This document shows, in pieces, positions 17 to 28,632 of a stretch of 45,862 nucleotides of DNA (position 1 is its first letter; each line of letters begins with the position of its first letter). The stretch spans positions 1-45,862 of the forward strand of contig JAUCBJ010003821.1 of NCBI GenBank assembly GCA_032718475.1, read 5' to 3'. The stretch is from Nemertoderma westbladi (Eukaryota > Animalia > Xenacoelomorpha). The notes under the pieces were generated by a model. The model saw nothing but the letters and a program-made list of their open reading frames with translations. It searched no databases and was not told the DNA's origin. The position numbers and the translations under genes are program-made.

Positions 17-3000
17 ATGTTGTGGCGTCGACAACCTCCTAAGTTGGAGAACAACTACAACTTAGCCTTGAAAATATTGAACGGAGTAAGGGCTCGGTTG
101 CTGAAGAATCCAGACGTTAGGGAGAAGTATTGCGCCCAGATAAACAACTATTTTGGCAAGGGATTTGCTGGGAAGGTAGAGGACGCGGACTTAGTGATGG
201 ACCAGACTTATTACCTTCCACACCACTATGTGACTCACCCTGACAAACCAGATAAGGTCCGAGTAGTCAACGACTGCGCAGAGTCTATAGAGGTATGTCC
301 CTGAACTCAGAGTTGATGGATGGTCCCAACTTAAATAACTACTTGATAGGGGTACTGTTATGCTTTAGACAGCGGCGATTCGCGTTTACTTGCGACATCG
401 AGGCGATGTTTCACCAGGTAAGAGCCTGCAAGGTGGACCAGGATAGTCTCCGATTTCTCTGGTATGAGAATGAAGACCTATCCGGCCCAGTGGTTACATA
501 CCAGATGTATGTCAGTATATTCGGTACCCGCGATAGTCCCAACGGCACGCCGTTTGTTCTAAAGAAAATGGCAACGGCCCAGATTGGTAAGTATCCAGTA
601 GACGTTATTGAGTCCATCCTGAGAAACTTCTATATGGACGATGGATTGGTGTCCAAGGACACAGCGGAACAAGCCATAGAAGTGGCTCACGGCCTACAGG
701 AGTGCTTGGCTACAGGAGGTTTCCCATTGACCAAGTTCACCACCAACTCGGAGGCCCTATTAGAGTCATTCCCGGTAAAAGATCGCGGGAGCGGAGACAT
801 TGAATTGGGGGTAGAACCCATCCCCATGGCGCGAGTACTGGGACTCGCTTGGAATCCGAACACGGATAAGTTCCAGGTGAGAGTTAGGTCTGAGCCCAGT
901 AGTCCAGACAAAGTTTTGACTAAGAGAATCTGCTTATCCACAATGAGTAGACTATTTGACCCGATGAACTTTATCAGCCAGGTAATATTACAGGCACGAG
1001 TATGTATGAGGAAAATTTGGTTGTTCGACCTAGAGTGGGACGAGGCAATATCCCCTATACATGCAAAGCAGTGGAGAGAGTGGGAAGCCGAGTTACATCT
1101 ATTGAAAAATATAGATGTACCCCGCTCCTACTTTCCAAATCAGCTGGTATTTCCAGCTGATTTAGAACTGCACTTATTTAGTGACGCAAGTTACACCGGC
1201 TTTGGTATGGTAGCCTACCTTCGCCGAGAGGTAAGTCAGGATAAGTTTGAGACAGCCTTTGTGACTTCTAGATCAAAGACAATGCCGGTCAAATACATGA
1301 CTGTCCCTCGTGCAGAGTTGCAGGCGGAAGTAGTCTCAGTTGAGGTAAGTAAGCAGATAATAGAGGAGTTAGACACTACATTGACCTTATTCTATTGGAC
1401 GGATGCATCCTTAGTGTTAGTGTACATTGCAGCCGACAATATTGCACTAAAGACATTTGTGGCCAACAGATCGTCGAATTTTCGACGAAGGAACAATGGA
1501 GACATTGTCCGGGAGTGTTAAACCCGGCCGACATAACTTCGAGAGGTGCTATGCCGGCGGAATTCTGTCAGGAAGAGTCCCAGGAGTTTTGGTTACATGG
1601 ACCTGATTTTCTAACGAAGACACAGGAACATTGGCCAGAGCGACTGAAGATAGTAACCAATCCGATGCCGATAGATGTAGAAGTCAAGGTGGAGAAAGTC
1701 TCCAAGTCTAAGTCGAAAGCCAAATTAGATTCATTGGAGCGTCCTGAAGAGTCATTGGAGCGGCCTGAAGAGTTATTGGAGTGGCCTGAAGAGCCATTGG
1801 AGCGGCCTGAAGAGTCATTGGAGCGGCCCAGAGACCTGTCAGACCTAGAGACGTACGTGACTACTAGATCCGGAAGGGTAAGTTATGACATATAACCACC
1901 CTTACAGACTACACAAGTGGTCACAATTGGTAAGTGACGGACAGAAAATGACCGACAAAATGGAGCCTTTGGTTTCCAAACCTGCGGGTTTGGATTCGAA
2001 ACTTCCATTAGCTAGCGGGCAACCGTCGCTGGCATTAGAGCCATGTAGTATTTATGACAAATTACTAAATTCGTCTGCCTCTTGGCTGACAATATGTAAA
2101 AGAACTGCATGGTTAAGCCGATACGTTTCGTACCTTTGTTTAAAACATTCGGAACATTTATGAGAACAAACGAGCACTAATATTGAGCGAATTCAGAAAT
2201 TGAAACAACCTCTGACAGAGGATGAGATTGATTAAGCGGAATTAAAACATTTGAAGCATTATCAAATGTGTGCCTTCCCGAAAGAATTCTATCTATTATT
2301 GGCTCAACGACCAGTTCTCTATAAACCCCTTAGAAAATGGAGCCCATTAATCCATAAGGGTTTAATTTGTCATAGATCGAGAATCCAGACTGTCGACATA
2401 AACTCACAGTTTAGGTTCCCAGTGATAATCCCTAATCACCCATTAGAATTGCAAAGAGCGATTCTATGGGATATACATAAGAGGTTGCATCACGCGGGAA
2501 AGTTACATTGTTTGTCGGCAGCGAGACAGCGATTCATTCCATTGCAGCCAAGCAGGGCAGTAGGTACTATGTACGACGCCTGTCTGGTTTGCAAGAGAGT
2601 GAACGCCAGAGTATTGGAACAGGAGATGGCTGAACTCCCGGAAGTGAGAGTGCAGGCATATGACCCACCCTTTACAAATACAGGGGTGGACTGCTTTGGT
2701 CCGATTGAGGCAAAGAGTGGACGGCTGACCCACAAGAGATGGGGCCTGCTACTGATATGTATGGCCAGTAGAGCCATAAACATAGAGGCTGTGGCAGACA
2801 TGTCGACCAAATCTCTGCTCCTGGCCTTAAAGAGATTTATGGCCAGGAGAGGACTAGTTCTACTCTGACAAGGGTACAAACTTTGTCGGAGGGAATAGCG
2901 AGTTGAACGCGGCTCATAGGGCAGCGCAGAATAGAGAAATCTCTGCAGCACTTTTGCTGCAAAGAGTGGAGTGGAAATTTAACACTCCAGAAAGTCCCTG

Positions 3001-3604
3001 GAGAGGAGGAAGTTGGGAGCGTTTGGTTCGCTCCATAAAACAGGCTATTGCTAAAACATTGCCTGTAAATAAACAACTTACCGACGATGAGCTGGTAACA
3101 GCTTTCATCGAAATCGAGCATACATTGAACTCGAGGCCGATAGCTATGTTGCCAGACGGTGTTGCATTAATGCCGAATCATTTGCTAATGCAGAGTCCAG
3201 CGTTTCTTGTGCCAGCATCAGAACCCATTAGTGCCGACCTATATAGTCGAAAGAGCTGGAAAATAACTCAATTCGTTGCGTACACATTCTGGGAATATTG
3301 GCGGGAATATTATCTTCCCACAATATCCACCAGATCCAAGTGGTACAAAACAGTTCGGAGCCTCCAAAGAGGAGACTACGTATTAATAACCGAACCAGTT
3401 GTCAAGAGAAAATATTGGGAGACCGGAGTCATCTTGCACATACACCCAGACGTACAAAATATAGTGCACACCGTCACTGTAAAAATAAGGTGCAAGTGTC
3501 CGAACCAAAAGAAGTGTAAAACTAATGGTTTACACACCTTTGACCAGACCGGTCCAAGATATCGTGTTATTAGAGGAGACACGCATCGAGACAGGAGACT
3601 ATAA
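17..3604 (+). pseudogene. pol: BEL/Pao LTR retrotransposon pol (RT, RNase H, integrase), frameshifted with stops, truncated at window start
   Basis: Hallmark BEL motifs across consecutive ORF pieces: YYLPHH..PDKVRVV, SLNSEL.DGP, DIEAMFHQV, FYMDD, VLGLAW, LHLFSDAS..GFG, VPRAELQA, WTDA, NPADITSRG, FWLHGP, HH..CC zinc finger, TGVDCFGP, SPWRGGSWERLV. Frameshifts near 295, 1480 and 2865; stops near 2160-2235. Confidence 0.95.
1731..1828 (+). repeat. 21-bp in-frame tandem repeat (LERPEES) inside pol
   Basis: About 4.7 copies of TCATTGGAGCGGCCTGAAGAG between RNase H and integrase. Confidence 0.9.
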
Positions 3605-4049
3605 TTTGTCTCCTGCTTCAAACCAAAATTAGTGTTGGATCACAAATTCACTTTGTATGCATTCCTCGTATGCAAATACTAGGAAATGCATAGGAGCGGG
3701 TTTGTGGTGATTTGCGTTGAGAATTTGTCTAGTGGGTATCAAAACAAAATTTTATTTCATAAAATGTTTGGAAAATTAAAAATTTTAAAAAATTAGAAGT
3801 GAACCCAAGACAATTCCAAACGCTGTGTATAGACGTGTTCTAGAATTTGTCTATAGAAATACAGTAATTTGAAAGTCGTGAAGCCTGGAAAATAGTATCT
3901 AGACACCATGGTGATGGCTATATTATGTAGGAGTGTAAATTGAGTTCAGTAACCTCCACAGATTGGTGCCAACAGTACAACAACCGAGGTGCTAAAGGTT
4001 AGTAGCACCAGAGGCGTACACAGACCCCACTCAGTAGTTTGCAGTGGAG

Positions 4050-4615
4050 TGTTAGCTTATCCAATTCCGCTAACACAAACCCATAGAGTGAGCCATAAAG
4101 CAATATTGGGAGCACGAGGTTGATTACCAATCAACCTCGTGTCAGCCCAGTAAACGGGGACAATAGGCCCCAAAGGAGACACACACAATAAGGGTCAGGG
4201 GTTACTCCCCTGACAAGAGAGAGAATAGCTGGGGTGAACGGGAAACACACCAGGGAAGGTGAAGGGGCGAGAAGTGGGATATTAGCCAATGGGGGGGCAA
4301 GGCATCGATTAGGTAGTAATATGGCCAACCGTGCAGTATATTACCTGTTGGTGCTCCCCTATTCAGTCAGTTATCTCAGTCGGTCAGTACAGTCAGGTAG
4401 TACGGTGACAGTTAGGACCGTCACCGCCGTCATCACATTACCGGTACCAGTGCAGCAGTATTCAGTGCTATCTGCTATTGTACCTATACACTATATGTTA
4501 TCTCAATTTATATCCTTAACAACAACGTCAGAACAACAACTCTTTTCATCCACACGGCGGGGACGCGTACTTAACCAATACCGGATAAACCGGGATCCTC
4601 TCGGATCCCGTCACA
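4050..4615 (+). repeat. 5' LTR of the nested element
   Basis: TGTTAG...GTCACA; no differences from 10432-10997 seen by eye. CCAAT, TATA-like (about 4337) and TCAGT Inr-like (about 4363) motifs. Confidence 0.95.
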
Positions 4616-4670
4616 GTCCTAACTCTAGGCCTGCCGAACTGTAACTGCCAGACACAGACCAAAGACAAAG

Positions 4671-7600
4671 ATGTTTCGAGAGAAAGGAACGACATCGCCG
4701 CGGACCCCGGGCGACGATCTAACGATCCGCGAGGCCACGGCGAGACGATACGAACCCATGACGCCGGTCGATGCTACGCCGACCACGTCGACGCAGGTTG
4801 ACGCCACGTCGATAACGAGCAACACGGCGAACCAAGATGTGGGGGGTCGTCTACCAGGAGAGAGCGAGTCGAGTAGAGGAGACGAGTCGAGAGGAGAAGA
4901 GAAAGACGAGTCGACGTGGAGCGAGGGTCGACGTACCGATGTCGCCGGCCCGCCACAGGCCGAGGGCGACGGACGGCCCACCGGAACGGCAACGGTGGAG
5001 CCGCCGGTACGACGTCGGACCCGGAGAGACGGACGAGAGGTCGGCGACGAGGACGTCGGGGTTTCTGATCGACTTTGACGGGCCTACAACGCGACCCGGG
5101 AACTACTAAAGGAGGCCAAGGAGGGGGCGAAGATAGACGAGGTGAGACTGAGAAAGCGACTAGGTGAGTCGAACAGATACTTTGATCACCTAGTGTGTTC
5201 TGGACAGAGAGAACTAGCAGAGTTGAGGGCGTGGGGAGTTGCCTTCGAACTGTTTAAACTGTGGGAATGTGGGGGTATGGAACCTAGCGTAGTGTACGTA
5301 GGGCCATACTTAGTCGATGCCCGGGGAGTAAAATTAGTGGGTTGGAAGAGACCTGAGGAGGGCGAATCCGAGGTTAACTCCGAGGATTCGGTCTCGTCGG
5401 TCGGAGGAAGTTCCGGGAGGCGGGGGAAAGTTAGTGGGACGGAGGGGCGACGGGAGTCCGTCGCAACCGATAAGTCTGCTACATCCTCCGTAAAAGAAAG
5501 ACGGGTGCGAGAGAGTGAACGCATGGCGTATAAATTAGAAATGGTTGCGACAGAGCAGAATGAGTTAGAGAGACGATTGAGAGAGGGAAGCGCATTCTCA
5601 GAGAAGGTAGGAGAGTTGGAGAGGGAGTGTAGAGAGAGGGCCGAGAAGTGTAGAGAGGGAGCCAAGGAGTGTAGAGAGCGAGAGATAGGAGTAGAGAGCG
5701 AGCCGGCGAGGCGGCTTGAGATGCTTGCGAGAGAGGCAGAGTTGGCTGAGCAGAATATGCGAGAGATGGGGATAGAGGGTGAGTGCAGGCGGGATGATTT
5801 GCGTGCTCAGCTAGGGAGGCTTGCGCAATATCAAGCCAAATTAGACCAGCGCCGACTAGAACTGGCGCGGTTGGAGATATCAGAGAGTGAGCCCCCACTT
5901 ACAGGCACCGGGCGAGAGAGCCAGAACTGGTGTAGCCGTACGGGCGGGGGGTGTAGTAGTAGTACGTTAGAGACAGTTAATGTTAATAGTACCGTAGTAA
6001 ATAACCCTAATCCCTTTATTACAGGAAATAATATTTTACCGGGTAGTAGTAATTTAAATTTAAATACAAATATTCTAAATAATAATTTCAATTCAAACCC
6101 GCAAAATAATTCGGATAATAATTTAAGTCTAGAGAATAGTAGTGATCTAAGTAATTTAAATAATTTAAATAATAATCCCGTTTCAAATTCTAATAATTTA
6201 ATTGATTTAACAAATAATATTGGGAATGGTGCTATTAATGTGAGCGTGTCGGACGTACATAACCCGGCAGACGGGGGCCTGGTAGGCCACGTAGTTAGTA
6301 GGCAGGAGGCAGCGGGGTTGAGCCAACCCGAAGTGGGCCTGATGGGCCACGCAGTAGTAGAGAGAGAGGCGGGGGTGAATAGACCCAGCCGTAGTAGAGA
6401 CAGTGCGTCGACTAGAGAAGGGTGTAGAAGTGTAGCAAGAGGTAGTGAAGTTAGAAGTGGCGGGTGGGGGGGGGCTACGGGCACCCCACCGTAAGAGATT
6501 AGTAGAGAGAGAGGGGGGGCAGAGATTGTCCCACAGCCGTCAGCGGATAATGCGCGGGCCGAATTAGGTAAACCGCAACACCCGGCGACGGAGAGTAATA
6601 GGGGGATTGCGAGTATCCCCAGCGGCGTGCGATCGAGTAGAGAGAGGCAGGTTGACGTCGCGAGAGGGCAGACGAAGCGTCGAGCCCGATTAGAAGAGGG
6701 AGGAAGAAGAGTGGAGTTTAACCGGGAGGTCGACGAGAGATCTCACGAGCCGGAATACTGCACTGAAAAGAGACGAAGAGGAGATAGTAGAAAAGGTGTC
6801 GCCACGAATGATAGGAGTGTGAGGACGGATAACGAACCGTCGATAGTAGAGATGGAGTCAGGGAGCCAGTGGGGTCGAACTTCGGGAGATTGCCGTCGCC
6901 CCGGAGAAACGCACCGCACGCCAAGAGAGGGGTACAAGACGTACCAATACAAAGTCGAGAACAGGAGAGGGGATCGAAGAGAAGCTTCCCGACGGGATAT
7001 ACCTGCCGATCGAGAGTGCAGTAGTCGCGGGGAGATTCGAGATTCGCGAAGAATAAACTTCGGTTCGGAAGGGCACATGCAGACTGCAGGACATACTGTA
7101 GGCCTTACTGCACATACTATTGTAGGCCATGCTGGGAGAGATAGAGTAGGCGATGGGGTAGCGCGAACGACGGGATTAAACCCGGAAGTCGCGGAGTACA
7201 TACCGGTAGGTAGGCCTGTATCGGTACAGCAGCATGACTATAATAATAAACAGGGACATAACATATATCCAGGGGAGGGGGGAGTTATTAGAGATAGACG
7301 TATGGGCCCCAATGTATTAACATCAACCCCAGTACCAAACATACCGGCTGGGGGGGGACAGGGTGACATTCCCCCATCACAATATCGACAATATACCCCG
7401 ATAGGAGCAAGAATATCGAACTCCCTGGACGAGAGCAGGTCGTGCGGACAGTCACCACCACACGCGGCCATACAGGGGACTACCAGTCCACAGTTAGCTG
7501 GTAGTAGGGCCACACCGTGGCAGGGACAGAAAGAAAATAACACCGTAAATAAAAACAATCCCAATATACCCAGTAGGCCGAGTCTAGACAACCAAAACAT

Positions 7601-8216
7601 TAAATCGGTACATATAAACCTAAGCGCGATACGTGAAGGACTATACAGGAAATGCTATAATCCAGGATTCCAATGTCAATTACATCGGGACGGAACCCAT
7701 AAGACCAAGAGTTGCAAGTACTGGCAAGCGTTGCCCAAACGAGATCGTGTAGCCTACACAGACGCAAACGGACTATGTCATCGATGTGTGGTAAAAGGAC
7801 ACAGATCCGGAGATTGTTGGAAAGGGAGAGGATGTGAAAGGACTAGACCAGGGGCAGAGAAGCCCATGAGCAAACATAAGGGAGTCGGGAAAGTAGAAGG
7901 AGGCGTGTTGCATACACACGCAGGACGGACACAGTGCGAGGGGGCATTGCACGGGCAGACACCGCGTATACCGAGGGACGAGCGGGGGTCGTCGAGGGCT
8001 TTAATGCCAGCGCACATACGAAGGGGGAGGCCAGCAAAGGTGGCACCGAAGAGAGTGTGGCGAAGAGTTAGAGGACGTATAGGAGGGCAGCAGGAGAGTG
8101 CCTACTGGAAGAAGGGGCACCTGAGAGTTTTTAGTCGTCCAAAGTTTTGGACTGAGGGGGGTGGGAATGAGGGCGAGACGCCCTTCCCACGCACAAAATA
8201 TAAAATAATTATTTAA
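4671..8216 (+). pseudogene. gag: Gag-like ORF of 1182 codons broken by two in-frame stops
   Basis: ORFs 4671-5078, 5142-6494 and 6627-8216 share one frame and the gaps are open apart from TGA 5076 and TAA 6492. Coiled-coil E/R region, Asn-rich tract, and C-terminal CQLH..H...C and LCHRC..GH....C knuckles typical of BEL Gag. Confidence 0.75.
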
Positions 8217-8234
8217 TTAAATAAAATAATTAAA

Positions 8235-10020
8235 TAATAAAGTAGGTAGAAGTTAGGTAGTTAGGAGTTATTTAGGAGGTACGTAGTACCTAGAGTCAGA
8301 GTTAGTTAGTTAGTCAGTTAGCACTGATAGTTAGTGTTAGAGTAAGAGTTAGAGAGTCTCTCTACCGTTAGAGAGTAGGAGTTAAGGGGTACGTAGTACC
8401 GTTAGAGAGTTAGTAAGAGTTAGTAGGTACGTAGTACCTAGTTAGAGAGTCAGTAGGTACGTAGTACCTAGTTAGAGTTAGAGTTAGTAGGTACGTAGTA
8501 CCGTTAGAGAGTTAGTAAGAGTTAGTAGGTACGTAGTACCTAGTTAGAGTTAGAGTTAGTAGGTACGTAGTACCGTTAGAGAGTTAGTAAGAGTTAGTAG
8601 GTACGTAGTACCTAGTTAGAGTTAGAGTTAGTAGGTACGTAGTACCTAGTTAGAGTTAGAGTTAGAGGGTACTTAGTACCGAAGTTAGAGGGTACGTAGT
8701 ACCGATAGTTAGAGAGTTAGTAGGTACGTAGTACCTAGTTAGAGAGTTAGTAGGTACGTAGTACCTAGTTAGAGTTAGAGTTAGAAGGTACATAGTACCT
8801 AGTTAGAGTTAGAGTTAGAGGGTACGTAGTACCGTTAGTTAGAGTTAGAGTTAGAGGGTACGTAAGTACCGCTAGTTAGTTAGAGTTAGAGGGTACGTAA
8901 GTACCGGTTAGAGAGTAAGAGTTAGAGGGTACGTAAGTACCGGCTAGAGAGTAGGAGTAGTAAGAGGGTACGTTGTACCGCTAGCTAGTAGAGAGAGCTA
9001 GAGTAGTAAGAGGGTACGTAGTACCGCTAGTTAGGGGTGTTAGTAGTAGCAGTAGAGGGTTGTGGGCACCGTAAGCGCCACGTAGTTAGAGTTAGTAGGG
9101 AATGCGCTGAACTTAGTGGGGCACGGGCGTGATGATGTGTTTGATGTAAGAGCAAGGTATGTTAATTAGGGTGGGTGCCGGGCACAAGAGGTGCCGGGCA
9201 CAAAAAGAGTAGAGTAGTAGACGGGCACATAGGGTGCCAGGTAGTAGAGTTAGAGAGTTAGAGATAGAGTAGAGTAGTAGAGAAGGCACATAGGGTGCCA
9301 GGTAGTAGAGTTAGTTGAGTTAGTAGAGAGTTAGTAGAGTTAGAAGGTGCCGGGCACAAGAGGTGCCGGGCACAAAAAGAGTTAGTAGAGTTAGAAGAGA
9401 GTTAGTAGAGTTAGTAGAGTCAGTAGTAGTTCACATAATTAACGTACCCACTCTGCCGGCACTCAGAGCGTCACGTGTAGGCGATGAGACGTAAAGGGGG
9501 TGTAGAGGAGTAGAGACGGGCACATAGGGTGCCAGAGAGTAGAAGAGTAGAGACGGGCACATAGGGTGCCAGGTAGTAAGTTAGAGAGGTAGTAGTGTAG
9601 TAGAGAGGGCACATAGGGTGCCAGGTAGTAGAGTAGAGCAGAGGGGGCACATAGGGTGCCAGGTAGTAGAGTAGAGCAGAGAGGGCACATAGGGTGCCAG
9701 ATAGTAGAGTGGTTGTGGGCACCGCAAGCGCCACGTAGTTAGAAGAGTGGAGTAGAGTTAGTAGAGCTAGTTAGTAGAGTTAGCAGAGCTAGTGGAGTAG
9801 AGTTAGCAGAGCTAGTGGAGTAGAGTTAGTAGAGCTAGTTAGCAGAGTTGGTAGACTCAGAGGAGTCAAGTAGAGTTAGTAGAAGTAGAGAGCTAGTAGG
9901 AGTTAGTTAGACTTAGTAGAGAGTTAGAGTCAGTAGAAAGTTAGAGGCTCTCAGTTAGAGCTAGAAGTAGTAAGAGTTAGTAGTTAGCAGAGTTAGTTAG
10001 ATAGTTAGAGTTAGTAAGCA
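8235..10020 (+). repeat. C-poor low-complexity array (GAGTTA/GAGTA) with embedded palindromic units
   Basis: Repeated GGTACGTAGTACC (about 8280-9030) and GGCACATAGGGTGCC / GTGCCGGGCAC (about 9170-9700) separated by AGAGTT spacers. Confidence 0.9.
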
Positions 10021-10431
10021 GTAGGTAGATAGTATGATAGCACAGGGGTAGCATTAGAGATTAAAGCCTTAGGGAGTGACAGAGAGTAGAGAGTAATAGT
10101 GCGGAGTGCGAAGAGAGCGTGGGCGCAATTCAAGTGTGGGGGAGGAGAAGTGAGAGGAAGAGTGTGGGACGAGGAGGTCCGGGAGTATGCGAGAGTTGGA
10201 GTAGAGTGGTGAGAGTGTTGGGGAAACAAAAATTGTGTGAGAGAAGCGCACGATCGGCCCGACACGAGACGCCAGAGGGTAGTGACATCATACCCATAGG
10301 GAGCGGCCTGGAAAGCCGACTCCGAAAAAATAGACCCACCCCACACCCGATAATAGATCGGGATCCAGCGGAATTGTAGCGCACTTTAGTTGGATGCTAT
10401 CTTCTCACCGGGAAGATAGCATGGGGGGGAG

Positions 10432-10997
10432 TGTTAGCTTATCCAATTCCGCTAACACAAACCCATAGAGTGAGCCATAAAGCAATATTGGGAGCACGAG
10501 GTTGATTACCAATCAACCTCGTGTCAGCCCAGTAAACGGGGACAATAGGCCCCAAAGGAGACACACACAATAAGGGTCAGGGGTTACTCCCCTGACAAGA
10601 GAGAGAATAGCTGGGGTGAACGGGAAACACACCAGGGAAGGTGAAGGGGCGAGAAGTGGGATATTAGCCAATGGGGGGGCAAGGCATCGATTAGGTAGTA
10701 ATATGGCCAACCGTGCAGTATATTACCTGTTGGTGCTCCCCTATTCAGTCAGTTATCTCAGTCGGTCAGTACAGTCAGGTAGTACGGTGACAGTTAGGAC
10801 CGTCACCGCCGTCATCACATTACCGGTACCAGTGCAGCAGTATTCAGTGCTATCTGCTATTGTACCTATACACTATATGTTATCTCAATTTATATCCTTA
10901 ACAACAACGTCAGAACAACAACTCTTTTCATCCACACGGCGGGGACGCGTACTTAACCAATACCGGATAAACCGGGATCCTCTCGGATCCCGTCACA
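10432..10997 (+). repeat. 3' LTR of the nested element
   Basis: Direct repeat of 4050-4615, preceded by PPT and followed by the TSD. Confidence 0.95.
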
Positions 10998-11342
10998 TGG
11001 AGTGAGGTGTTTGATTATCAAACCTGCGGGTTTGGTATAGTAGAGCGCCATAACTATTGTCTTTCTAACTACTGTAGTCTAGTACAAGTATTGGGGAGTA
11101 GCTTGGGTATCAAAAAGTGAGTTGGTCACGGCCAGTTTATCTCCGAAGTTTTTGCGCTATGCATGGGAATAGGTTAGAAGGTAGTTAGGAATTAGACGGG
11201 ATCTAGAAAGCCGAACCTGAACTGCTGGAAGGCGGCTGGGTAGCTCGGGAAGTCTGTCCCTCCACACCATCTAACTGATTTACCCACAGTGTAATTGGTT
11301 TGCGTGACGGACTATTGGGATATATGTATATACGCGGCAATA

Positions 11343-12710
11343 ATGGAGAAGGAAATTCGAGCGCAACCGAGGAGAGGATTTATCACCAGGGAGGAAGCGG
11401 AACTACCGTTCGCCCGACATGGGTGTCAGGACTCTAATGTTTACTACCATGGGAGATCGTATGGAGGCTCTACGAAAGGAAGATCGCACTCGATATCCCC
11501 ACGACTTCGCCCTTGATGTGTGCGATATTAGCGCCGACCCTGACGAGGAAATCGCCCATCTATACCATATGAATATGTATTTGCGGCACGATGAACCGCT
11601 ACCTGCCGTCCGAGATCAATTTGATGGGATGCATCTTTACCGGAGGACCCGAGACGAGGACGAGGAGACGCCAAAGGTTTCAGCGTATACAAGTTGTTCT
11701 ACAAATGCGGCGAATACATGAATAAACAAGACGTAGCAATTCCCGACCGACTGAACGAGCAGAATCCTGAACCGATATTAACGCGGTGTCAAGCTCACCA
11801 GTTTCTTAGATACAACGAGGGAGGTTACCCGATGAGCAACCCGATGAGCAGTATCGACTTTAGCGGAAAGAGACCTCCGAGACCTATTACGCCGACCGTT
11901 ACGACTTTGGACCCGTATACGGAGATTAAACCCTGTTCGACACCCGCTTTGATAGAGACGGCGGCGGCCATTTCGCTATACCGAGCCTATAAGGACCTAG
12001 AGGCGCAGCGCGAAGCGGTACGGGACTCGAGTACCAAACCCGCGGGTTTGAAACTCTCGAGTCCCTGGACCACGTTCACTTCGCTTCACCAGGAGAGGAA
12101 GCTCATGCCTGAGTATCCAGACGAGGTAAAAATACGACGCGAAAAGACAACGCAAGCTGTTCCGACATCCAATAGATTCTCGCCGTCCATCCGTCTACTG
12201 ACCATACCCACGATCCGCGATTTATACGATATTTACTCCAAATTATTTCAGGAAGTTTCGACGCACGCATTATTAAGCCCGAATATGTCCAATCCTTTAT
12301 ATATCATCGTCGCTCTGATATATACGTCTAGATTTATTGCCCAGCGCACAATTGGCGGCCTAAGGAGACTCGTTTGGGGTCATTGACCTCTGAACGAGTG
12401 GAGGAGCAACGGTCCGCCGCGCCGACAGCGACAACAGCCAGAGATCATAGCTCGCGGCAAGTACCAGGAGGAGTTGATGGAGGCGCCCACAGGAACACGG
12501 CAAATGGGACGAGGCCGAGGGAGGAGCACCAGTCGAGAGATAGTCGGTGCCCAGGGAACGTCGTCGCCAGTTCCGGGAAGTGATGCCTCAAGGACGCCGT
12601 CAACAGAGTCTACAGGGGGTAGACTGTTATATCTGGGGAGGGGACAAAAGAGAGGAGCGAGCCCGAACGACCCAGGAGCTACTCGATTAGACTATAATAT
12701 CACAGACTGA
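11343..12710 (+). pseudogene. Fragmented ORF(s) of unknown function in retroelement-associated DNA
   Basis: Overlapping + strand ORFs (73, 100, 230, 69, 78 aa) in a GC-richer block, consistent with one frameshifted gene starting at ATG 11343. No recognisable domain. Confidence 0.4.
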
Positions 12711-15589
12711 CAAACTCTAGACATATACATCATCATCGCTCTGATGTATATCATAGGTTTTGATCAATCATTCGACTGGACTCATATACACTAGTCGTAT
12801 CCATATTTTAGAATTTTATTTTCGAAGGCCGAAAAATATTGAAAGGAAATACTTTCACTTTGTAGTCTGTTGGAAATAGTAAATACTTTATACCATATTT
12901 GATTTTGTGTATATGACTTTATTTGCTCTAAAGTTTATTGAAAGAGGCAAAGGAAGTGATTGGGGAGACAAACCTGCGGGTTTGGCTTACTCCTTTCACT
13001 TACCTGAGCAATCATCAAACGCGTTTTTATAAGAAATTAAGTAAAGTCCGAAATTGAAAGAAATTATTACGTATTTTATATTTAGTTTGATTATCGGCCT
13101 TTAATGCAATTTAATTTAGTTAAAAATTTAGCCTCAAATACGTTTATATTTAGTGTATTTTGTTAATGTTGATCGTTAATTTGAGATGGGAAATGGGGGA
13201 CATTGTCCTACCCATGTTCCATTTCAATAGGTAGACCGTCAATTTGTAAATAAGTAATGGAAGAGCAATATTTTTGTAAATTTAATTTGTATGTACTGTA
13301 GTAATCATTATGTAGTAAGAGAAAGCAATATTTTTGTAAATTTAATTTGTATTTAGTAATCATTATACAGTGAGAGAGATAATATTTGGTAAATTTAATT
13401 TGTATGTAAAACCATTATGCAATATATATGCAAATATAATAAATGCAATATATATTTTGTAAATATTTAGAACTATTATAAGACCAAGCATTTAGATTAT
13501 TTGAAGGTAATTTTTATTTTGTTTGTTCACATCGCCCTATATTCTTCTACAATTGGAGGGAAACATTGCTTGTTTCCCTTGGAGCGGTGTTACGATATAT
13601 GGCGCTGTGTACCATTATCAGCCCGTTATACAGTATAATTATTTATATAAGCCATAATGACGCCAATCATATTTAGATAAGGAGAATAAAATATCCATAT
13701 TTGTGAATCTGATCCATGTTGTACAGTATGTAGCCCTACCTACGTAATTTTGTAGTAAAATATAAATAAATAGTTCTACGGTAGCAAGTTTCCTATGAAA
13801 CCCTTGATGTAAGCTTGCTGTTATGGTATTAATAGGATTAACCGTGTATTTGCTTTATTTTCCATTATATTTGCGCTAAATTAGATTTTATGTACCGTGC
13901 TTTGAATATCGCTAAATTAAGCAACGCCAATGTTACCATATATGGTGGCAATTTGTGATTCTGAGGGGGATTAGGTTCACAATCCGGCTTCCTCATTGGC
14001 CTAGCCAATCCAGTTTGCTTCCAGGTTGGTCTAATGGTAGCGCGGATTGGGGAACCAATGAGAGGATTATTGCATCATCCTTTATGAATCACCTATAAAT
14101 TAGCTGTATTTTCGGTATGTGCATCTGTCTGCTTCATAATATAATCTTATCTCATTTGTATATTTGTTTCTTGCAATAATTTGTAATTTTTTGTAATTTC
14201 TGCTTAAAATTCTCTTTGCTGTATTTCTCACATCTCTCATGATGGTTACTGCAAATTATAACTTAGAACTATGATTTCTACCCCTTGATTAATCGTTCTA
14301 TGTGATTTAAGATGCGATAATCCCACGAGATTTCTTTAGACTGTCAGACTGTTTGTGATTGCATGCGCCGCTACGGTAGCTATTCATTCTAATGGAGGGT
14401 TAAGGTACCGGTAGGCGCGGCGGGCGCACTGGGGGGAAGCGACGGAAGGGAGTGCAGAGGATCCAAAGCGGAGCGACGCTGGCGGGGGGCCACCGTTGCG
14501 GTCGAGCTAGTCAGTTCAGGTCCAGGGACCAGCCGCTGCTACAGTATTAGGGGGCTGACGATCCAGATTTCCGTCTCTACTTTGTAGTTTTAGGGGGGCA
14601 GAATTTGGGTTTAGTTAGGAGTCCTAGGTGTGGCTTTGGGTGACCTGTGGTTCTTACACTGACTGATTGGATGACTAATACTGGTATACTGATGTACTAA
14701 CGTATGAGTATTTAGTGCACTAGCTGATTGGTGTAGTTAGCGCTATCTGCCATACTACTAACTTAGTGCTACGCTATTTGTGTTGTGTTGCAAAAGAGTG
14801 CCTGATTCTTAAATCTGAATGCTTAGATAGGCGCATTTCCCTTGATTGATTTCTATTTCTTAGTTTACGATAAATAATTGCTGATTAGGTCAAAATAATA
14901 CGCTATTTAGGCTGTTGCTAGTGTAACCCGGTACGTAATAAATTATAATTGCGTATTCTGGAACACCTAGTAATTAGTACGCAGTTTCGTATTTATGACT
15001 GTAATTAATTAGTATAAAATTAAGAATTTGTATGCAGCATAGCGGAGAGTAGTTAAAGTAATTATTTGAAGTACTGTAGACTATTCACGCTAGGCGGTTA
15101 TTTGAAAATAGTGGGGCAACAGGCTGACAGCAGTGTCCAGTACAGTATACAGTACAGCAGTAGTAAGTTTGCTGGTCTAAAACCAGCCAAATGCCAAGTT
15201 TCGGCACCTAGGAAAGTAATAGATCTGTCCCCGTAGATTATTAAAACATTCTCACATTAAATGTGTTCTGCCATTGAATTCCCGCTAGGCCACCCGCACT
15301 CGTTTTAAGTAGTTTAGGGAGCCGATTCGGGTTTATTGTTTTGGTTATTCCCGCGTGGCTCATAGATTCGAACAGTTAGCTCTCTATTGAGCGATCAACA
15401 GAGAAAGGAACAAGCGATTTGCAGGAGCCGTATAAAATTAGTAAAATATATTAGCGGACAGCCAGGTTAGCGCCATCCAGCGGTGAGAAGCAGTTTTGTG
15501 TTTAGCAGCAGTGCAGCGCAGTAATAACGCTCTCCTGATCACCCCTGTTCAACAAACGGCCTCGGCCAAGCTATCAGTAACACCATCCC

Positions 15590-15645
15590 AGCCAACGGTG
15601 ACGCGTATAACAACCTACTCGGTCGGGATCTCTGATCCCGTCACA
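15590..15645 (+). repeat. 3' terminus of an LTR related to the nested element's LTR
   Basis: ACGGTGACGCGTA...CGGGATCTCTGATCCCGTCACA matches the nested LTR end ACGGCGGGGACGCGTA...CGGGATCCTCTCGGATCCCGTCACA. Composition switches abruptly to AT-rich viral coding DNA at 15646. Confidence 0.75.
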
Positions 15646-15646
15646 G

Positions 15647-16198
15647 AAAGATCAATTACAAATAGTTGAAAATACTCAGCAAAATAGATTGCAATTTATT
15701 TCAGGGAAAACTGTACGAGAATTATTTATAGGACAACAATTAGCCTATTATTTTGGAATTACTGAAAATAATCTCGGAGCGAATTTAAATCCAAATTTTA
15801 AAATTAATTTGAAGACGAAAAATAATATAAAGGGTTATTTAATAAAAATTATCGGAAATGAAGAAAAAACTTACCAAATGGTATTTTTATGTCCTCAACC
15901 ACCCAATTCTATTCCAGAACCTAAGTCGAACATGTACGTGACTACTAATATAATTGAAAATGAATATATGAATAATTTTGGTTTAGCCTTACTTCGTCGT
16001 GTCGCGATACCTGATGATGTGAAATATGGCAGTGTAATAAATAAAGAATTTGCCAAGGATACAATTCATTATATCCCAGTAAAAAAATCATATAAGATAA
16101 CATACATTCATATTGAAATAACAGACAAAGAAGGAAAAGATTTGAATTTTGAATACGGGACAACATCTATTACATTACACTTTAAAAAAATAAATTAA
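15647..16198 (+). CDS. Minor capsid (penton-like) protein, C-terminal part, 5'-truncated at the LTR junction
   Basis: MYVTTNIIE...LLRRV...YIPV...IHIEITDKEG..LNF..G...ITLHFKK fits the Polinton minor capsid C-terminus. The frame is open back to the LTR end. Confidence 0.82.
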   Translation, partial: KDQLQIVENTQQNRLQFISGKTVRELFIGQQLAYYFGITENNLGANLNPNFKINLKTKNNIKGYLIKIIGNEEKTYQMVFLCPQPPNSIPEPKSNMYVTTNIIENEYMNNFGLALLRRVAIPDDVKYGSVINKEFAKDTIHYIPVKKSYKITYIHIEITDKEGKDLNFEYGTTSITLHFKKIN

Positions 16199-16199
16199 A

Positions 16200-16764
16200 A
16201 TGGATTCCGATTTATTTCAAAGATACAGTAAACCTCAATATGGTGGCGCAGACTCTAATCTTGCTGTTTTTAAAGGCGGTAGAACTACGAGAGGGTCAAC
16301 GCAAGTTCCTGTTTTTCGGGGTGGTTCATATATAGACCCTTATGGGCAACAAATTGGTGCATTTGGTACAAACATAAAACAACGTTGATTTCAACGTTAT
16401 CAGAGAGGTATGCAGACAAATCAACACGAGGAAGGAATACTTACAGATGCTTTATCTACATTGAAGAAATTTGGAAAGCCATTAGCAAAAAAAAGTTTTA
16501 CAAAAAGCTTTACCATTTACCACAAAATTTATGAGACAACACGGAATACCAAAAGGTAAGCGGGTCTTACATCAGCAGGCTAATATGGTTATTAATAAAG
16601 CATTAAATAAAATGAAACCATCAACAAGATGGGTTGTAGAAAAAGTTTAGAGATTTAAAACGACCGACTAAACCAATGTCTATGAACATACATCATCATC
16701 GTGGTAAAAATAGAAAAATAAAAAAAGGCAAACTCAAGCACTGCGAAAAAAGTCATTTTTAATA
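16200..16764 (+). pseudogene. Small basic core-like virion protein gene, decayed
   Basis: Y..PQYGG, FKGG and FRGG resemble adenain cleavage sites. TGA at 16386, then QRG..Q..EGILTDALSTLKKFGKPLAKK (amphipathic), frameshifts and a Lys-rich tail. Lies between the two capsid genes. Confidence 0.6.
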
Positions 16765-18024
16765 ATGTCGATTATTAGAGAATTAGATTTATTTTCTACA
16801 CAGCCAATACAAACTGAATTTAAAGCAAAGTATTATGAAACAATTTACCCGGTATCTAGTCTCAGAAGCGAGTCTCGCGAAGTAACTTTTCTTGTACCTC
16901 GATCCAACGAATTTTATACCAAGCTTCAATATGCGTTAATTACAAAATGTACTGTACGGTGGGATAGACGGCTTGAAAACTCACACATTTATATGTTGAA
17001 TTACCCCTCTGGAACTATGTGGAGTGATATTAAAATAGACCTCAATGAGAAGCAGGTTGAAAATAGCAATAACCATTATTTCTACAAGTCATACTTATCC
17101 AATTTACTTTTTACTACATATGAAAGTAAAAATTGGCTGCTGGGGGCTGGATGCTTTCGTCAGCCTTTATCCGAACACGGAAATGAAATTAATCCCGTCG
17201 CACACCCCATTGCCGACGCTTTTAGTAAACAAATGCAATTTGTAAGTGGATTGACGATTGATTTTGATACTGAAAGTAAAATAATACAACCTGGGTATGA
17301 TTTAAGAATGCATTTTAGAAAAGTATCAAATTCGTTTATTTTTAAAATCACCCCAAACGCAAACGCTGTGACAAATCTTCGGCTAGAATTAGACGAAGTA
17401 AAGATCCTAATCCCTAGAATGGAGGTTAATCCCGTAATAGAAAGCAGCCATGTAAAAGGTTTAGAGAGCTACGATATTGAATATCAATTTAAAAAAAGAG
17501 AGGTTACTACATTTACTATTCCCGCGCAAACCACAATTTACACGCAAACAAACATATTTGATGGTAAAAATTCCAAATTGGTTATTATCGGCTTTATAAC
17601 AAATAATTCATATTCGGGTGAATTAACTAGTAATCCATTGAAATTTGAACATTTTAACCTTAGACGCGCGGAACTGTTTGTAGACGGTCTTCCGGTAGGT
17701 GGGGTAATATACGAGCCTAATTTTACAGATGGAACATACATTTTTGAGTATACTCAATTAATGAAAAACATTAATACATATTATATTAACGGTTATGGAG
17801 GTAATAATATAGACCATGAAACCTACTTAGGTAATTGCCCCATCCTATCCTGGGACCTAACCGCCGACGGCTATGTTAGAAATCCGCAACCATCGATATA
17901 TACTAACGGCCAATTAAAATTAAGATTTGCCGAACCGTTGGTTGAGACCATAAATGTAATCGTTTTTAATATTTATGATCAATCATTAAGTTTAAATAGC
18001 AGGAAAGAAATACATATCGATTAA
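16765..18024 (+). CDS. Major capsid protein (double jelly-roll, hexon-like) of Polinton/adintovirus type, 419 aa
   Basis: ELDLFS.QPIQT, IYP, WSDIKIDLN, YFYKSYL..LL, NPLKFEHFNL..LFVDG, WDLTAD, GQLKLRFAEPL.ETINVIVF match my recollection of the Polinton MCP consensus. Uninterrupted ORF. Confidence 0.88.
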   Translation: MSIIRELDLFSTQPIQTEFKAKYYETIYPVSSLRSESREVTFLVPRSNEFYTKLQYALITKCTVRWDRRLENSHIYMLNYPSGTMWSDIKIDLNEKQVENSNNHYFYKSYLSNLLFTTYESKNWLLGAGCFRQPLSEHGNEINPVAHPIADAFSKQMQFVSGLTIDFDTESKIIQPGYDLRMHFRKVSNSFIFKITPNANAVTNLRLELDEVKILIPRMEVNPVIESSHVKGLESYDIEYQFKKREVTTFTIPAQTTIYTQTNIFDGKNSKLVIIGFITNNSYSGELTSNPLKFEHFNLRRAELFVDGLPVGGVIYEPNFTDGTYIFEYTQLMKNINTYYINGYGGNNIDHETYLGNCPILSWDLTADGYVRNPQPSIYTNGQLKLRFAEPLVETINVIVFNIYDQSLSLNSRKEIHID

Positions 18025-22039: not shown

Positions 22040-23466
22040 CCCATGTGAAGAATACCAGGATTTCACTTTCCGGTCGACTTTTTATTGGAATTTTATATAT
22101 GAAGTTTTTTTTTTTGAATTTATCTTTATTAAGTGTTTTATAGCGCTTATTTCTGTCTTATAACCTCATTCGTTTATTGTTTTGGTTAGATTCAGCCCTT
22201 CTGTAACCTGTATTTTTGGTGAAAACCTGGTATTCTTCACATGGGGGTAACTGCAAAGTGAAATGTAACGGCAGAAAGTCTGGTATTCTTCACATGGGGG
22301 TAACTGCAAAGTGAAATATAACGGCAGAAATCCTGGTATTCTTCACATGGGGGTAACTGCAAAGTGAAATATAACGGTAGAAAGTCTGGTATTCTTCACA
22401 TGGGGGGTAACTGCAAAGTGAAATATAATGGCAGAAAGTCTGGTATTCTTCACATGGGGGTAACTGCAAAGTGAAATATAACGGCAGAAAGTCTGGTATT
22501 CTTCATATGGGGGTAACTGCAAAGTGAAATATAACGGCAGAATGTCTGGTATTCTTCACATGGGGGTAACTGCAACGTGAAATATAATGGCAGAAAGTCT
22601 GGTATTCTTCACATGGGGGTAACTGCAAAGTGAAATATAATGGCAGAAAGTCTGGTATTCTTCACATGGGGGTAACTGCAAAGTGAAATATAACGGCAGA
22701 AAGTCTGGTATTCTTCACATGGGGGTCACTGCAAAGTGAAATATAACGGCAGAAAGTCTGGTATTCTTCACATGGGGGTAACTGCAAAGTGAAATATAAC
22801 GGGAGAAAGTCTGGTATTCTTCACATGGGGGGTAACTGCAAAGTGAAATATAACGGCAGAAAGTCTGGTATTCTTCACATGGGGGTCACTGCAAAGTGAA
22901 ATATAACGGCAGAAAGTCTGGTATTCTTCACATGGGGGTAACTGCAACGTGAAATATAATGGCAGAAAGTCTGGTATCCTTCACATGGGGGTAACTGCAA
23001 AGTGAAATATAATGGCAGAAAGTCTGGTATTCTTCACATGGGGGTAACTGCAAAGTGAAATATAACGGCAGAAAGTCTGGTATTCTTCACATGGGGGTAA
23101 CTGCAAAGTGAAATATAACGGCAGAAAGTCTGGTATTCTTCACATGGGGGTAACTGCAAAGTGAAATATAACGGCAGAAAGTCTGGTATTCTTCACATGG
23201 GGGTAACTGTAAAGTGAAATATAACGGCAGAAAGTCTGGTATTCTTCACATGGGGGTAACTGTAAAGTGAAATATAACGGCAGAAAGTCTGGTATTCTTC
23301 ACATGGGGGTAACTGCAAAGTGAAATATAATGGCAGAAAGTCTGGTATTCTTCACATGGGGGTAACTGCAAAGTGAAATATAATGGCAGAAAGTCTGGTA
23401 TTCTTCACATGGGGGTAACTGCAAAGTGAAATATAACGGCAGAAAGTCTGGTATTCTTCACATGGG
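22040..23466. mobile_element. TIR element whose right terminus is tandemly amplified
   Basis: CCCATGTGAAGAATACCAG at 22040 is the reverse complement of CTGGTATTCTTCACATGGG, present in every array unit and ending the array at 23466. Confidence 0.65.
22227..23466. repeat. 53-bp tandem repeat, about 23 copies
   Basis: Unit CTGGTATTCTTCACATGGGGGTAACTGCAAAGTGAAATATAACGGCAGAAAGT. Confidence 0.97.
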
Positions 23467-23484
23467 CCAACCTCATTGACCCAC

Positions 23485-23917
23485 CTGAACTCGAAGTTAT
23501 TGTTGCCGTCGCTATCAGCTGCATCCACCGTCGCCACTCGGTCACCCGCCTCCGCCGCCACATCAACTATAAAATGCGTTTCCCCGGAAACAAACGGTCC
23601 GTGGCCCATAACAACAACTTGTATTGTCTCACTAACCAACAATATGGAACCAGCGTAGCCTTTTATAGTAACCATAATCTCGCTAACTCCTATTAAAGAT
23701 TTCTTCGTACACAACTCTCCTCGAGACAACTCGATGCTGTCGATTATTGCTGCTTTCTCGTCCGAAAGTGAAAAATACTCGTTGCCATTGGTGATAGCCA
23801 ATGAAGCGTCGCTGAATAAAAACGCGTCGCTGCTTCGTTTCATGGAAACCATAGCAACACACCCCCCTAAGGGCTCCGTTTCTATGACTTTGAGCGGGTT
23901 ATCATTTGGGTTGAATA
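23485..23917 (-). CDS. Cadherin-like gene exon
   Basis: Open frame ending AGDRVATVDAADSDGNNNFEF; AG|gtgggt donor in phase 2; acceptor at 23917 or 23924. Confidence 0.78.
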
Positions 23918-25211: not shown

Positions 25212-25392
25212 CTGCTTAACTATTGATACCTCAACTTTCGCAGTTGAGCTTGAACCATCTGTTTTCGCCGTTGCCCGGACAACAATGGTATCCATGGTAT
25301 CCGCGGTCACCCCAGCAACCGATTCCACTAGTGTAACGAATCCGCTGACCTCATCAATAGCGTATCTAGTCACCTGGTCAGGGTCGTTGAAC
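25212..25392 (-). CDS. Cadherin-like gene exon
   Basis: ccttag acceptor in phase 2; YAIDEVSGFVTL..IVVRAT; CAG|gttggt donor (an alternative phase-0 donor lies near 25230). Confidence 0.8.
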
Positions 25393-25410
25393 CTAAGGAA
25401 AAGTTTACGG

Positions 25411-28269
25411 TGTAACAGCTGTGTTCTATATAACAGCTGTGTTTTGTAACAGCTGTGTTCAAATACAGCTGTGTTCTATAACAGCTGTGTTCTATATAAC
25501 AGCTGTGTTCTGTAACAGCTGTGTTCAAATACAGCTGTGTTCTATAACAGCTGTGTTCAAATACAGCTGTGTTCTATAACAGCTGTGTTCAAATACAGAT
25601 GTGTTCTATAACAGCTGTGTTCAAATACCGCTGTGTTCTATAACAGTTGTGTTCAAATATAGCTGTGTTATATAACAGCTGTGTTATATAACAGCTGTGT
25701 TATATAACAGCTGTGTTATATAACAGCTGTGTTCAAATACAGCTGTGTTCTATAACAGCTATGTTCTATAACAGCTGTGTTCTATAACAGCTGTGTTCAA
25801 ATACAGCTGTGTTCTATAGCAGCTGTGTTCAAATACAGCTGTGTTCTATAACAGCTGTGTTCAAATACAGCTGTGTTCTATAACAGCTATGTCCTATAAC
25901 AGCTGTATTCTATCACAGCTGTGTTCAAATACAGCTGTGTTCTATAACAGCTGTGTTCAAATACAGCTGTGTTCTATAACAGCTGTGTGCAAATACAGCT
26001 GTGTTCTATAACAGCTGTGTTCTATAACAGCTGTGTTCTATAACAGCTGTGTTCAAATACAGATGTGTTCTATAACAGCTGTATTCTATAACAGCGGTGT
26101 TCTATAACAGCTGTGTTCAAATACAGCTGTGTTCTATAACAGCTGTGTTCAAATACAGCTGTGTTCTATAACAGCTGTGTTCAAATACAACTGTGTTCTA
26201 TAACAGCTGTGTTCTATAACAGCTTTGTTCTATAACAGCTGTACTCTATAACAGCTGTGTTCAAATACAGCTGTGTTCTATAACAGCTGTGTTCAAATAC
26301 AGCTTCTTCTATAACAGCTGTGTTCAAATACTGCTGTCTTCTATAACAGCTGTGTTCAAATACAGCTTCTTCTATAACAGCTGTGTTCAAATACTGATGT
26401 CTTCTATAACAGCTGTGTTCTATAACAGCTGTGTTCTATAACAGCTGTGTTCAAATACAGCTGTGTTCTATAACAGCTGTGTTCTATAACAGCTCTGTTC
26501 TATAACAGCTGTGTTCTATAACAGCTGTGTTCTATAACAGCTGTGTTCTATAACAGCTGTGTTCTATAACAGCTGTGTTCTATAACAGCTGTGTTCAAAT
26601 ACAGCTGTGTTCTATAACAGTTGTGTTCAAATACAGCTGTGTTCTATAACATCTGTGTTCTATAACGGCTGTGTTCTATAACAGCTTTGTTCAAATACAG
26701 CTGTGTTCAAATACAGCTTCTTCTATAACAGCTGTGTTCAAATACAGCTGTGTTCTATAACAGCTGTGTTCTATAAAGACTGTGTTCTATAACAGCTGTG
26801 TTCAAATACATCTGTCTTCTATAACGGCTGTGTTCTATAACAGCTGTGTTCTATAACAGCTGTGTTCAAATACAGCTGTGTTTTATAACAGCTGTGTTCA
26901 AATACAGCTGTGTTCTATAACAGCTGTGTTCTATAACAGCTGTGTTCTATAATAGCTGTGTTCAAATACAGCTGTCTTCTATAACAGCTGTGTTCTATAA
27001 CTGCTGTGTTCTATAACAGCTGTGTTCAAATACAGCTGTGTTTTATAACAGCTGTGTTCAAATACAGCTGTGTTCTATAACAGCTGTGTTCTATAACAGC
27101 TGTGTTCTATAATAGCTGTGTTCAAATACAGCTGTCTTCTATAACAGCTGTGTTCTATAACTGCTGTGTTCTATAACAGCTGCGTTCAAATACAGCACTT
27201 TAGTGGAGCGACCTCGGTTAATCCTCTAAGTCGTAGGTCAAATAAGCAGCTAACCGTCTATATCCAATCGGTCCCACCACCGTTTGGACCCAGACGGTAA
27301 CCTGGTGTTTGTACTATTGCCAAGTTTTAGAGTGAAGCTGCACCAAGTTTATTACGACTTTAGACTAGAACATACCTTTTTTAGACTTTTCCATTATATC
27401 TTTTCAGCCAGTTTTCCATAGATTTTTCACGACTTTATTCTACCCTTTTTGAGACTTTTAGACTTTCTACAATCAGTTTTATTATATAACAGCATCATTC
27501 TAATACAGCTGTGTTCTATAACAGCTGTGTTATATAACAGCTGTGTTCTATAACAGCTGTGTTCTATAACAGGTGTATTCTAATCTAATACAGCTCTGTT
27601 CTAATACAGCTGTGTTCTATAATAGATGTGTTCTATAACAGCTGTGTTCTATAACAGCGTTCTATAATTGTTGTGTTCTATAACAGCTGTGTTGAAATAC
27701 ATCTGTGTTCTATAGCAGCCAGATTCTATAACAGCTGTGTTACATAACAACTGTGATTTAAAACAGCTGTGTTCTAAAACAGTTGTAATGTAAAACAGCT
27801 GTGTTCTATAACTAACAGCTGTATTCTATAACAGCTGTGTTCTATAACAGCTGTGTTCAATAAAATATGTGTTTTATAACAGCTGTGTTCTATAACAGCT
27901 ATGTTCTAATACAGCTGTGTTCTATAAAAGCTGTGTTATATAACATATGTGTTCTATAACAGCTGTGTTCAATAACAGATGTGTTCTATAACAGCTGCGT
28001 TCTATAACAGCTGTGTTCTATACCAGCTGTGTTTTATAACAGCTTTGTTCAATAACAGATGTGTTATATAACAGATGTGTTATATAACAGCTGTGTTCTA
28101 TAACATCTGTATTCTAATACATCTGTCAGCTTTGTTCCATAACAAATGTGATCTAAAATTGCAGTGTTCTATAACAGCTGTGTTCTATAGCTGTGTTATA
28201 TAACAGTTGTATTCTAATACAGCTGTGTTCTATAACAGCTGTGTTATATAACAGATGTGTTCTATAACA
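25411..28269. repeat. 16-bp minisatellite, interrupted at about 27198-27484
   Basis: Units TATAACAGCTGTGTTC and AAATACAGCTGTGTTC with palindromic core ACAGCTGT; the right block is more degenerate. Confidence 0.97.
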
Positions 28270-28632
28270 CGTTCGTGGGGCCTTCGCGCAGGACGAGGCT
28301 CAGTTATCAGATACAGATTAAAATTGAGCAATTCTATGCAAAATCGGTACTTAAGAAATTTAAATAAATAATTAAGAAATTTAACCAAAACGCCAATAAG
28401 AATAAATCAAAGAAGAGAGGAATGTTCCCCCTCGCTTCAACCGCCCTCTTATTAATCTGCACCACCCCAACCTAAAGGAGCACAGAGGATAAATGAAAGG
28501 CAGGATAAAGCACGCTGGCTTATTCAGTTATTAGTTACACTAGTTGTAGTGCCCTGTCTTTATGTCCTCTATAGATGTACTTACCCATTGCCAAGTAGTA
28601 GACAATAGCTAGCTAGTACCACTAGTTAAGTT

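Follow-up and report, generated by a model that had tools for sequence, protein, structure and literature searches.

The window, meaning here the whole 45,862-nt stretch of Nemertoderma westbladi DNA that was analysed, contains a 6.9-kb LTR element at positions 4050–10997 (Table 1). BEL/Pao features present are the TG...CA LTRs, the target duplication, the polypurine tract and a BEL-type zinc knuckle. Because both LTRs are identical, the element appears to have been inserted recently. No pol (PR-RT-RH-IN) was found between the LTRs among ORFs, with Pfam or by tblastn, and Pfam names nothing in the gag-like frame, the knuckle included. Judged from its sequence, this is a non-autonomous BEL-type element without pol, and not a full member of the Belpaoviridae.

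Table 1. Features of the element and its immediate surroundings, in window coordinates.
Feature	Position	Strand	Basis
Target-site duplication, left copy, TGGAG	4045–4049	+	Sequence comparison
5' LTR, 566 bp, TG...CA	4050–4615	+	100% identical to 10432–10997
CCAAT box-like motif	4286–4290	+	Sequence; function inferred
TATA-like motif	4337–4342	+	Sequence; function inferred
Two initiator-like TCAGT motifs; predicted start 4365–4369	4363–4371	+	Consensus match
Leader upstream of primer segment, predicted pairing with 4629–4658	4374–4409	+	Folding
7-bp hairpin of the first-pass annotation, stem 4403–4409/4420–4426	4403–4426	+	Present in sequence; fold P 0.00
Predicted self-primer segment, complement of site	4410–4418	+	Sequence; shuffles
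R-U5 stem, 5' arm, pairs with 4554–4565	4419–4430	+	Folding, P 1.00
R-U5 stem, 3' arm, pairs with 4419–4430	4554–4565	+	Folding, P 1.00
U5 hairpin directly before LTR end	4591–4610	+	Folding, P 1.00
Primer-binding site (predicted), GTCCTAACT, from first base after LTR, no TGG	4616–4624	+	Sequence
Gag-like reading frame, in-frame stops at 5076 and 6492	4671–8216	+	ORF
BEL-type nucleocapsid zinc knuckle	7647–7838	+	Protein comparison
Purine-rich tandem arrays in usual pol position	8242–9860	+	Repeat analysis
Polypurine tract, precedes 3' LTR	10423–10431	+	Sequence
3' LTR, 566 bp, TG...CA	10432–10997	+	100% identical to 5' LTR
Target-site duplication, right copy, TGGAG, 5 bp	10998–11002	+	Sequence comparison

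The class assignment leans on the knuckle, which has three matches among 1.84 billion representative proteins (best E 1.7e-5); by eye the best and the third are BEL-like, and the other is a generic CCHC protein. In alignments with many BEL polyproteins of ~2000 aa it falls where their own knuckle lies, with modest E-values, and a comparison with longer proteins gave 19 candidates, none significant. A tblastn comparison with 123 proteins has no match outside the knuckle among its 40 best rows. The best ESM Atlas match (0.88) is a lead only. The host is an animal, and BEL/Pao elements are described as confined to metazoans in the accessible text of PMC3601003.

Several other features of the window were recorded. 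A decayed BEL pol (PF05380, PF17921, PF18701) lies in several frames at 256–3604, ending ~450 nt before the element; it was considered as a partner and not adopted, as it forms a long branch on the tree and has no LTR in common with the element. A 17-nt near-palindromic motif occurs at 1977–1993, 11019–11035, 12034–12051 and 12969–12985 (three exact copies and one variant, with 0 expected), one copy being 21 nt beyond the element insertion. Two ORFs at 15611–16198 and 16714–18024 have no Pfam matches; we take them to resemble Polinton-type capsid genes. Tandem arrays are found at 22084–23604 (53-nt units), 25348–28270 (16 nt), from 29753 (31 nt) and at 37366–39508 (62 nt), and the minus strand carries a cadherin-like fragment and two reverse-transcriptase fragments (36678–37379, 40261–40989 and 43193–45196).

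The predicted primer site and the folded leader

As the first-pass annotation had stated, the 5' LTR is not followed by a TGG site: TGG is absent from 4616–4630, and an 18-nt site for the 3' end of a host tRNA is lacking. Its further claim, that the nonamer starting at the first base after the LTR is exactly complementary to 4410–4418, was confirmed as well. The complement is found at only one other place in the window, the 3' LTR copy (10792–10800). Complementarity ends after 9 nt, with a C-C mismatch at position 10 and renewed pairing at position 11. The chance of such a 9-mer, put earlier at ~0.2% in 566 bp, is indeed low, but the value itself did not hold: in dinucleotide-shuffled LTRs a match at offset 0 was obtained in 94 of 20,000 cases (0.47%), and at any offset from 0 to 6 in 291 of 20,000. 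Taken alone the 9-bp match is suggestive only; what makes it convincing is the self-matches in relatives considered below. There are no tRNA genes in the 45,862-nt window, and no Rfam match within 4000–4900.

Leader folds were computed from starts at 4365 and at 4410, and both are better than those of 200 out of 200 shuffles (z −4.7 and −3.5, respectively). The 9-bp primer duplex between 4410–4418 and 4616–4624 (−11.9 kcal/mol) nests with the R-U5 stem and the U5 hairpin. With transcription from 4365 it has P 0.03, because 4411–4418 pairs with U5 4567–4575 instead (P 0.97), and forcing the duplex brings the fold to 2.8 kcal/mol above the minimum; from 4410 it reaches P 0.45–0.91. The leader at 4365–4409 can also form a duplex with 4625–4664 (−27.0 kcal/mol), equalled in only 4 of 1000 shuffles and by 3 of 287 other internal windows. 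In these models the leader duplex, together with the TATA-like and initiator-like motifs, would favour a start at 4365–4369, while folding would favour 4410. The TCAGT motifs were called from the general initiator consensus.

The complement at 4410–4418 had also been placed in the loop of a hairpin. The 7-bp stem is present in the sequence and perfect (−10.9 kcal/mol in isolation), but the loop has 10 nt, of which the complement fills nine, and the leader is predicted to fold without this hairpin (P 0.00), which costs 11.4 kcal/mol when forced. It is missing from the minimum-free-energy fold of the 3' LTR copy too. A stem of this kind encloses 4 of the 516 9-nt segments of the LTR. The suggestion of a kissing loop or dimerisation signal is not supported either, given the hairpin's P 0.00, the competing R-U5 stem with P 1.00 and a loop that is not self-complementary.

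Contigs from three DNA sequencing runs of the host cover the LTR deeply, although summed depth is not copy number. At 4406–4425 the depth in run X1 is ~6,500, versus ~600 for exact-copy contigs. Among the variants listed from the three runs, no substitution falls in 4376–4512 or 4591–4650, nor in the 3' arm of the R-U5 stem at 4554–4565. The listed substitutions and indels cluster at 4568–4582, and further listed indels at 4600–4603, between stems or in loops; the latter are in the loop of the U5 hairpin, the predicted stem-loop beside the site, so that here stems are less variable than loops. From this distribution the competing U5 pairing (4567–4575) is not conserved, whereas primer segment, site and stems are. 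In two diverged contigs 4432 is followed directly by 4531 or 4544, with the two arms of the R-U5 stem retained. Many contigs agree with U5 and with the first two bases of the site but not beyond, and may represent other subfamilies with other sites. Covariation within the family is not readable from these contigs, which cannot phase the site with the primer segment. A single run, guessed to be RNA, covers 4046–4229 only. A 7-bp inverted repeat (4050–4056/4069–4075) opens the LTR, and 4056–4211 is covered far more deeply by sequencing contigs than the middle of the LTR, so many families share this start.

Primer sites and LTRs of related BEL/Pao elements

Relatives were sought with an alignment built from 61 BEL polyproteins together with the neighbouring pol. 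The best 80 of 561 matches gave 79 loci in metagenome contigs, representing 60 families; this sample is skewed to kin of one pol and is not mapped to named lineages. No BEL relatives were found in viral contigs. The LTR end is visible in both copies at 12 loci, of which two were excluded (L006, where the contig ends in the LTR, and L011, with a duplicated end), leaving ten.

At nine of these ten there is no TGG, and the site complements the element's own LTR. In seven the site is perfectly complementary, over 11–15 nt, to an exon junction within the LTR (12 in L007, 11 in L018, 13 in L023, 11 in L041, 15 in L065, 12 in L075 and 12 in L077), with 0–3 of 300 shuffles doing as well in each case. 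The junction search required GT and AG only, and the junctions found in the seven have GTAAGT, GTAAGC or GTACGT donors and YAG acceptors behind a pyrimidine tract (Y 0.74–0.89); equally good sites make up 2–21% of GTs and 3–10% of AGs in the same LTRs. In L041 the match ties with an alternative having a poor donor. L069 has a 12-nt junction match with one G-U pair, the strict search having chosen a different 11-nt match (7/300 shuffles), and L046, with a 177-bp LTR, has a contiguous 10-nt match (4/300 shuffles). L072 has a TGG site with a tRNA-Met motif, as in the accessible part of PMC5445492, and no self-match. The predicted LTR introns are 76–409 nt long. When sites and LTRs were exchanged in a swap matrix, every site fitted its own LTR best, save at four loci with one common site.

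Folding of the spliced leaders gave the junction duplex P 0.52–0.97 in seven of eight, as against P 0.00–0.15 for unspliced leaders; the exception is L018, with P 0.00. A poly(A)-like hexamer lies 17–142 nt downstream of the junction in all eight spliced relatives and 22–69 nt downstream of the segment in three of five contiguous ones, with none found in the other two. In two intron-less relatives the segment is 49 and 68 nt past the TATA box; the distance in the window element is 73 nt. In the 5' LTR of L048 only ~12 nt separate the TATA-like box from the predicted donor downstream, which leaves too little room for it to be the first-exon promoter.

Where only the LTR start could be fixed (17 loci scanned), all eight further families match, seven spliced (10–13 nt, 0–8 of 60 shuffles) and L047 contiguously over 12 nt. 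With no fixed ends, 11-nt junction matches were seen in L012, L048, L050, L054 and L003, and contiguous matches in L006, L026 and L036. The matches of L015, L040 and L078 come from looser scans or inspection by eye, the strict scan having missed or misplaced them. No call was made for the remaining families; in those inspected, the contig mostly begins inside the LTR, the leader or the gene. Loose scans yield chance matches of 8–12 nt with poor splice sites, so match length alone is no proof.

A held-out set comprised 22 loci (L080–L101), four of them with both ends fixed around a BEL gene. All 22 are in contigs filed under prokaryote genomes, and are probably host DNA in bins. L084 has a contiguous match of 11 nt (1/200 shuffles), L089 a spliced one of 12 nt that is of the L007 type, hence not independent, and L086, with its start fixed, an 11-nt junction match, which a loose scan placed third. 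No match passed the strict test at L087, whose two ends are fixed; by eye, 10 of 11 positions match, with consensus splice sites. This locus (L087:5615–6200) thus has a consensus LTR intron with a near-complete junction match, in a copy with differing site and primer. A repeat pair at L091 was set aside as belonging to another element. L097 has a TGGTCCT-type site with no self-match, and only GTCCT in common with the window site.

Altogether more than 20 different site sequences are each complementary to their own LTR. In a FastTree tree built from 78 RT-RNase H pieces, loci with a self-match are spread over a 76-row group that does not include L072 (support 95, midpoint root). L041 and L054 have sites of the same form as the window element, which at offset 0 reads GT, three variable bases and AACTCT; where these three bases differ from those of the window element, the LTR segments carry the complementary changes. 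The central proposal of the first-pass annotation, tRNA-independent self-priming in a BEL-type element, gains support from these pol-bearing relatives, which lack TGG and match their own LTRs with family-specific sequences; the case that was to speak against it, a site decayed from the tRNA-Tyr form TGGTCCT, was not seen in relatives. L002, L003, L018, L023, L075 and L078 have a site in common; its core, TTCGAA, is palindromic and might additionally act in dimerisation.

The window element itself, having no pol, could not be placed on this tree, and its knuckle matches many loci weakly; its tie to the self-matching clade therefore rests on the weak knuckle match, the form of the site and the LTR ends. 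Candidate introns in its LTR were rejected. The best GT-AG junction gives a 10-nt match; its donor scores 1 of 4, which is poor, and it has no pyrimidine tract (Y 0.37). The sole GTRAG donor (4088) gives a junction duplex that is no better than chance (555/2000 shuffles) and weaker than the unspliced one, and with the GT at 4397 as donor the intron would be 15 nt. The window family appears to be an intron-less form, like L046, L026, L036, L047, L006 and L084.

Proposed priming mechanism and alternatives

Taken together, these comparisons suggest that the element quite probably uses a fragment of its own RNA to prime reverse transcription, as Tf1 does. The transcript would start near 4365–4369 or at 4410, and its leader would fold back so that 4410–4418 pairs with 4616–4624 within the leader duplex, the R-U5 stem and the U5 hairpin. 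RNase H of a partner BEL element would then cut after 4418, and the freed 3' end would prime minus-strand DNA at the last base of the LTR. Strong-stop DNA would be limited to U5 and to R as far as 4419, and the 3' copy would supply the remainder of the LTR. In most of the readable relatives, the primer segment would be created by splicing an intron out of the R region of the LTR; the intron would persist while the 3' LTR copy is unspliced, and splicing there would give rise to intron-less families. Retroviral primer sites are re-copied from the tRNA. If the site is likewise re-copied from the primer here, a tight match of site and LTR across families would follow. As a caution, the 9-bp duplex of the window is shorter than the 11 of Tf1 and the 10–15 of most relatives.

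The pairing could instead be real but regulatory, a folding switch acting in translation, packaging or dimerisation, while priming falls to a fragment of a host tRNA or some other small RNA. The duplex is short and does not dominate the fold predicted from 4365, half-tRNA primers are known in copia lineages (accessible text of PMC6317226), and the palindromic core of several relatives would fit as well. However, the sites are located 0–6 nt from the LTR end, where a primer must bind, and replace TGG in every self-matching family, and for more than 20 sites that each follow their own LTR a constant pool of host RNAs is no explanation; a regulatory role without priming is considered unlikely. 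The 3' LTR copy of the segment, at the 3' end of the RNA, is a further conceivable source of primer, being identical, and since the window LTR has neither AATAAA nor ATTAAA the RNA end is not placed. The hexamers found downstream of the junction in the spliced relatives, and in part of the contiguous ones, mean on the other hand that the RNA would extend beyond the primer 3' end, and retention of the intron in progeny LTRs requires an unspliced 3' copy, making this source quite improbable.

It is very improbable that the 4403–4426 hairpin displays 4410–4418 for a kissing-loop or loop-to-site contact as a dimerisation signal: its stem is perfect and no substitution is listed in either arm, but the 3' arm is occupied by the R-U5 stem in the predicted leader, and the intron that divides the segment in spliced relatives keeps it from occupying such a loop. 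Just as little probability is given to the match being due to chance, or to the element being dead and its site the decayed remnant of a tRNA-Tyr site. A chance of 0.5–1.5% for one element, found post hoc, would allow the former, and the GTCCT common to L097 and the broken gag frame the latter. Against both, the identical LTRs point to a recent insertion, and therefore to priming that worked; the LTR end leaves no room for the TG, and the remainder of the L097-type site is not in common. Self-matching is, moreover, the rule in relatives, which already appear to have largely refuted this reading.

Self-priming with an LTR-derived RNA, the reading preferred here, has been reported or predicted for Tf1/sushi elements, Tcn1 and the copia element TAR (accessible parts of PMC6317226, PMC4600332 and PMC2864245). 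Tf1 RNA pairs with its site through its first 11 bases, and RNase H cleavage falls between bases 11 and 12 (PMC7175516, accessible text). As in Tf1, Tf2, Tj1 and other Tf1/sushi elements of the Ty3/gypsy group, the window site, by the 5' LTR, complements the element's own LTR-derived RNA, and a structured U5 is predicted (accessible parts of PMC7175516 and PMC4600332); unlike them, the element belongs to another superfamily, with no Ty3/gypsy (chromovirus) pol and a BEL-type sequence as its sole protein match. The plant copia elements TAR, Houba and Osr1 and the gypsy element Tcn1 are similar in that self-priming was predicted from complementarity alone, but belong to other superfamilies and hosts, and the accessible text of PMC6317226 describes no intron-split primer for them. 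Fungal GalEa copia elements resemble it in having lost the tRNA site, with a non-tRNA structure, the "conserved hairpin site", in its place; that hairpin is local and its authors found no complement in the LTR, whereas the complement of the window site is within the LTR (PMC5445492, accessible part).

For BEL/Pao elements themselves, ICTV gives an 18-nt site for tRNA-Arg or tRNA-Gly in the Belpaoviridae (PMC8742986), and Achilles has a tRNA-Tyr site according to the accessible text of PMC4580426. The window element is like such tRNA-primed elements in its LTRs, polypurine tract, target duplication and knuckle type, and unlike them in having neither a TGG site nor pol. A term search of the main text of the Sinbad paper and of a metazoan BEL/Pao survey (PMC3118150), in their accessible form, found no mention of PBS or tRNA. 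In the literature searched, no paper on BEL self-priming or on a splice-built primer was found; prior mention in subscription papers or Repbase Reports is possible.

For the group as a whole, it seems rather likely that a large BEL/Pao clade has dropped tRNA priming. An LTR intron would split the primer and the spliceosome would build it, so that only spliced 5' leaders start reverse transcription; an unspliced 3' LTR copy would pass the intron on, and a spliced one would give rise to intron-less self-priming families like that of the window. If this is true, self-priming would extend to a third LTR superfamily, one described as tRNA-primed, and a primer assembled by splicing, a form absent from the literature searched, would tie replication to host splicing. 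The tRNA site that is targeted by tRNA fragments would be gone. The many BEL elements without a recognisable primer site would be accounted for, and a simple sequence rule would be available for their annotation.
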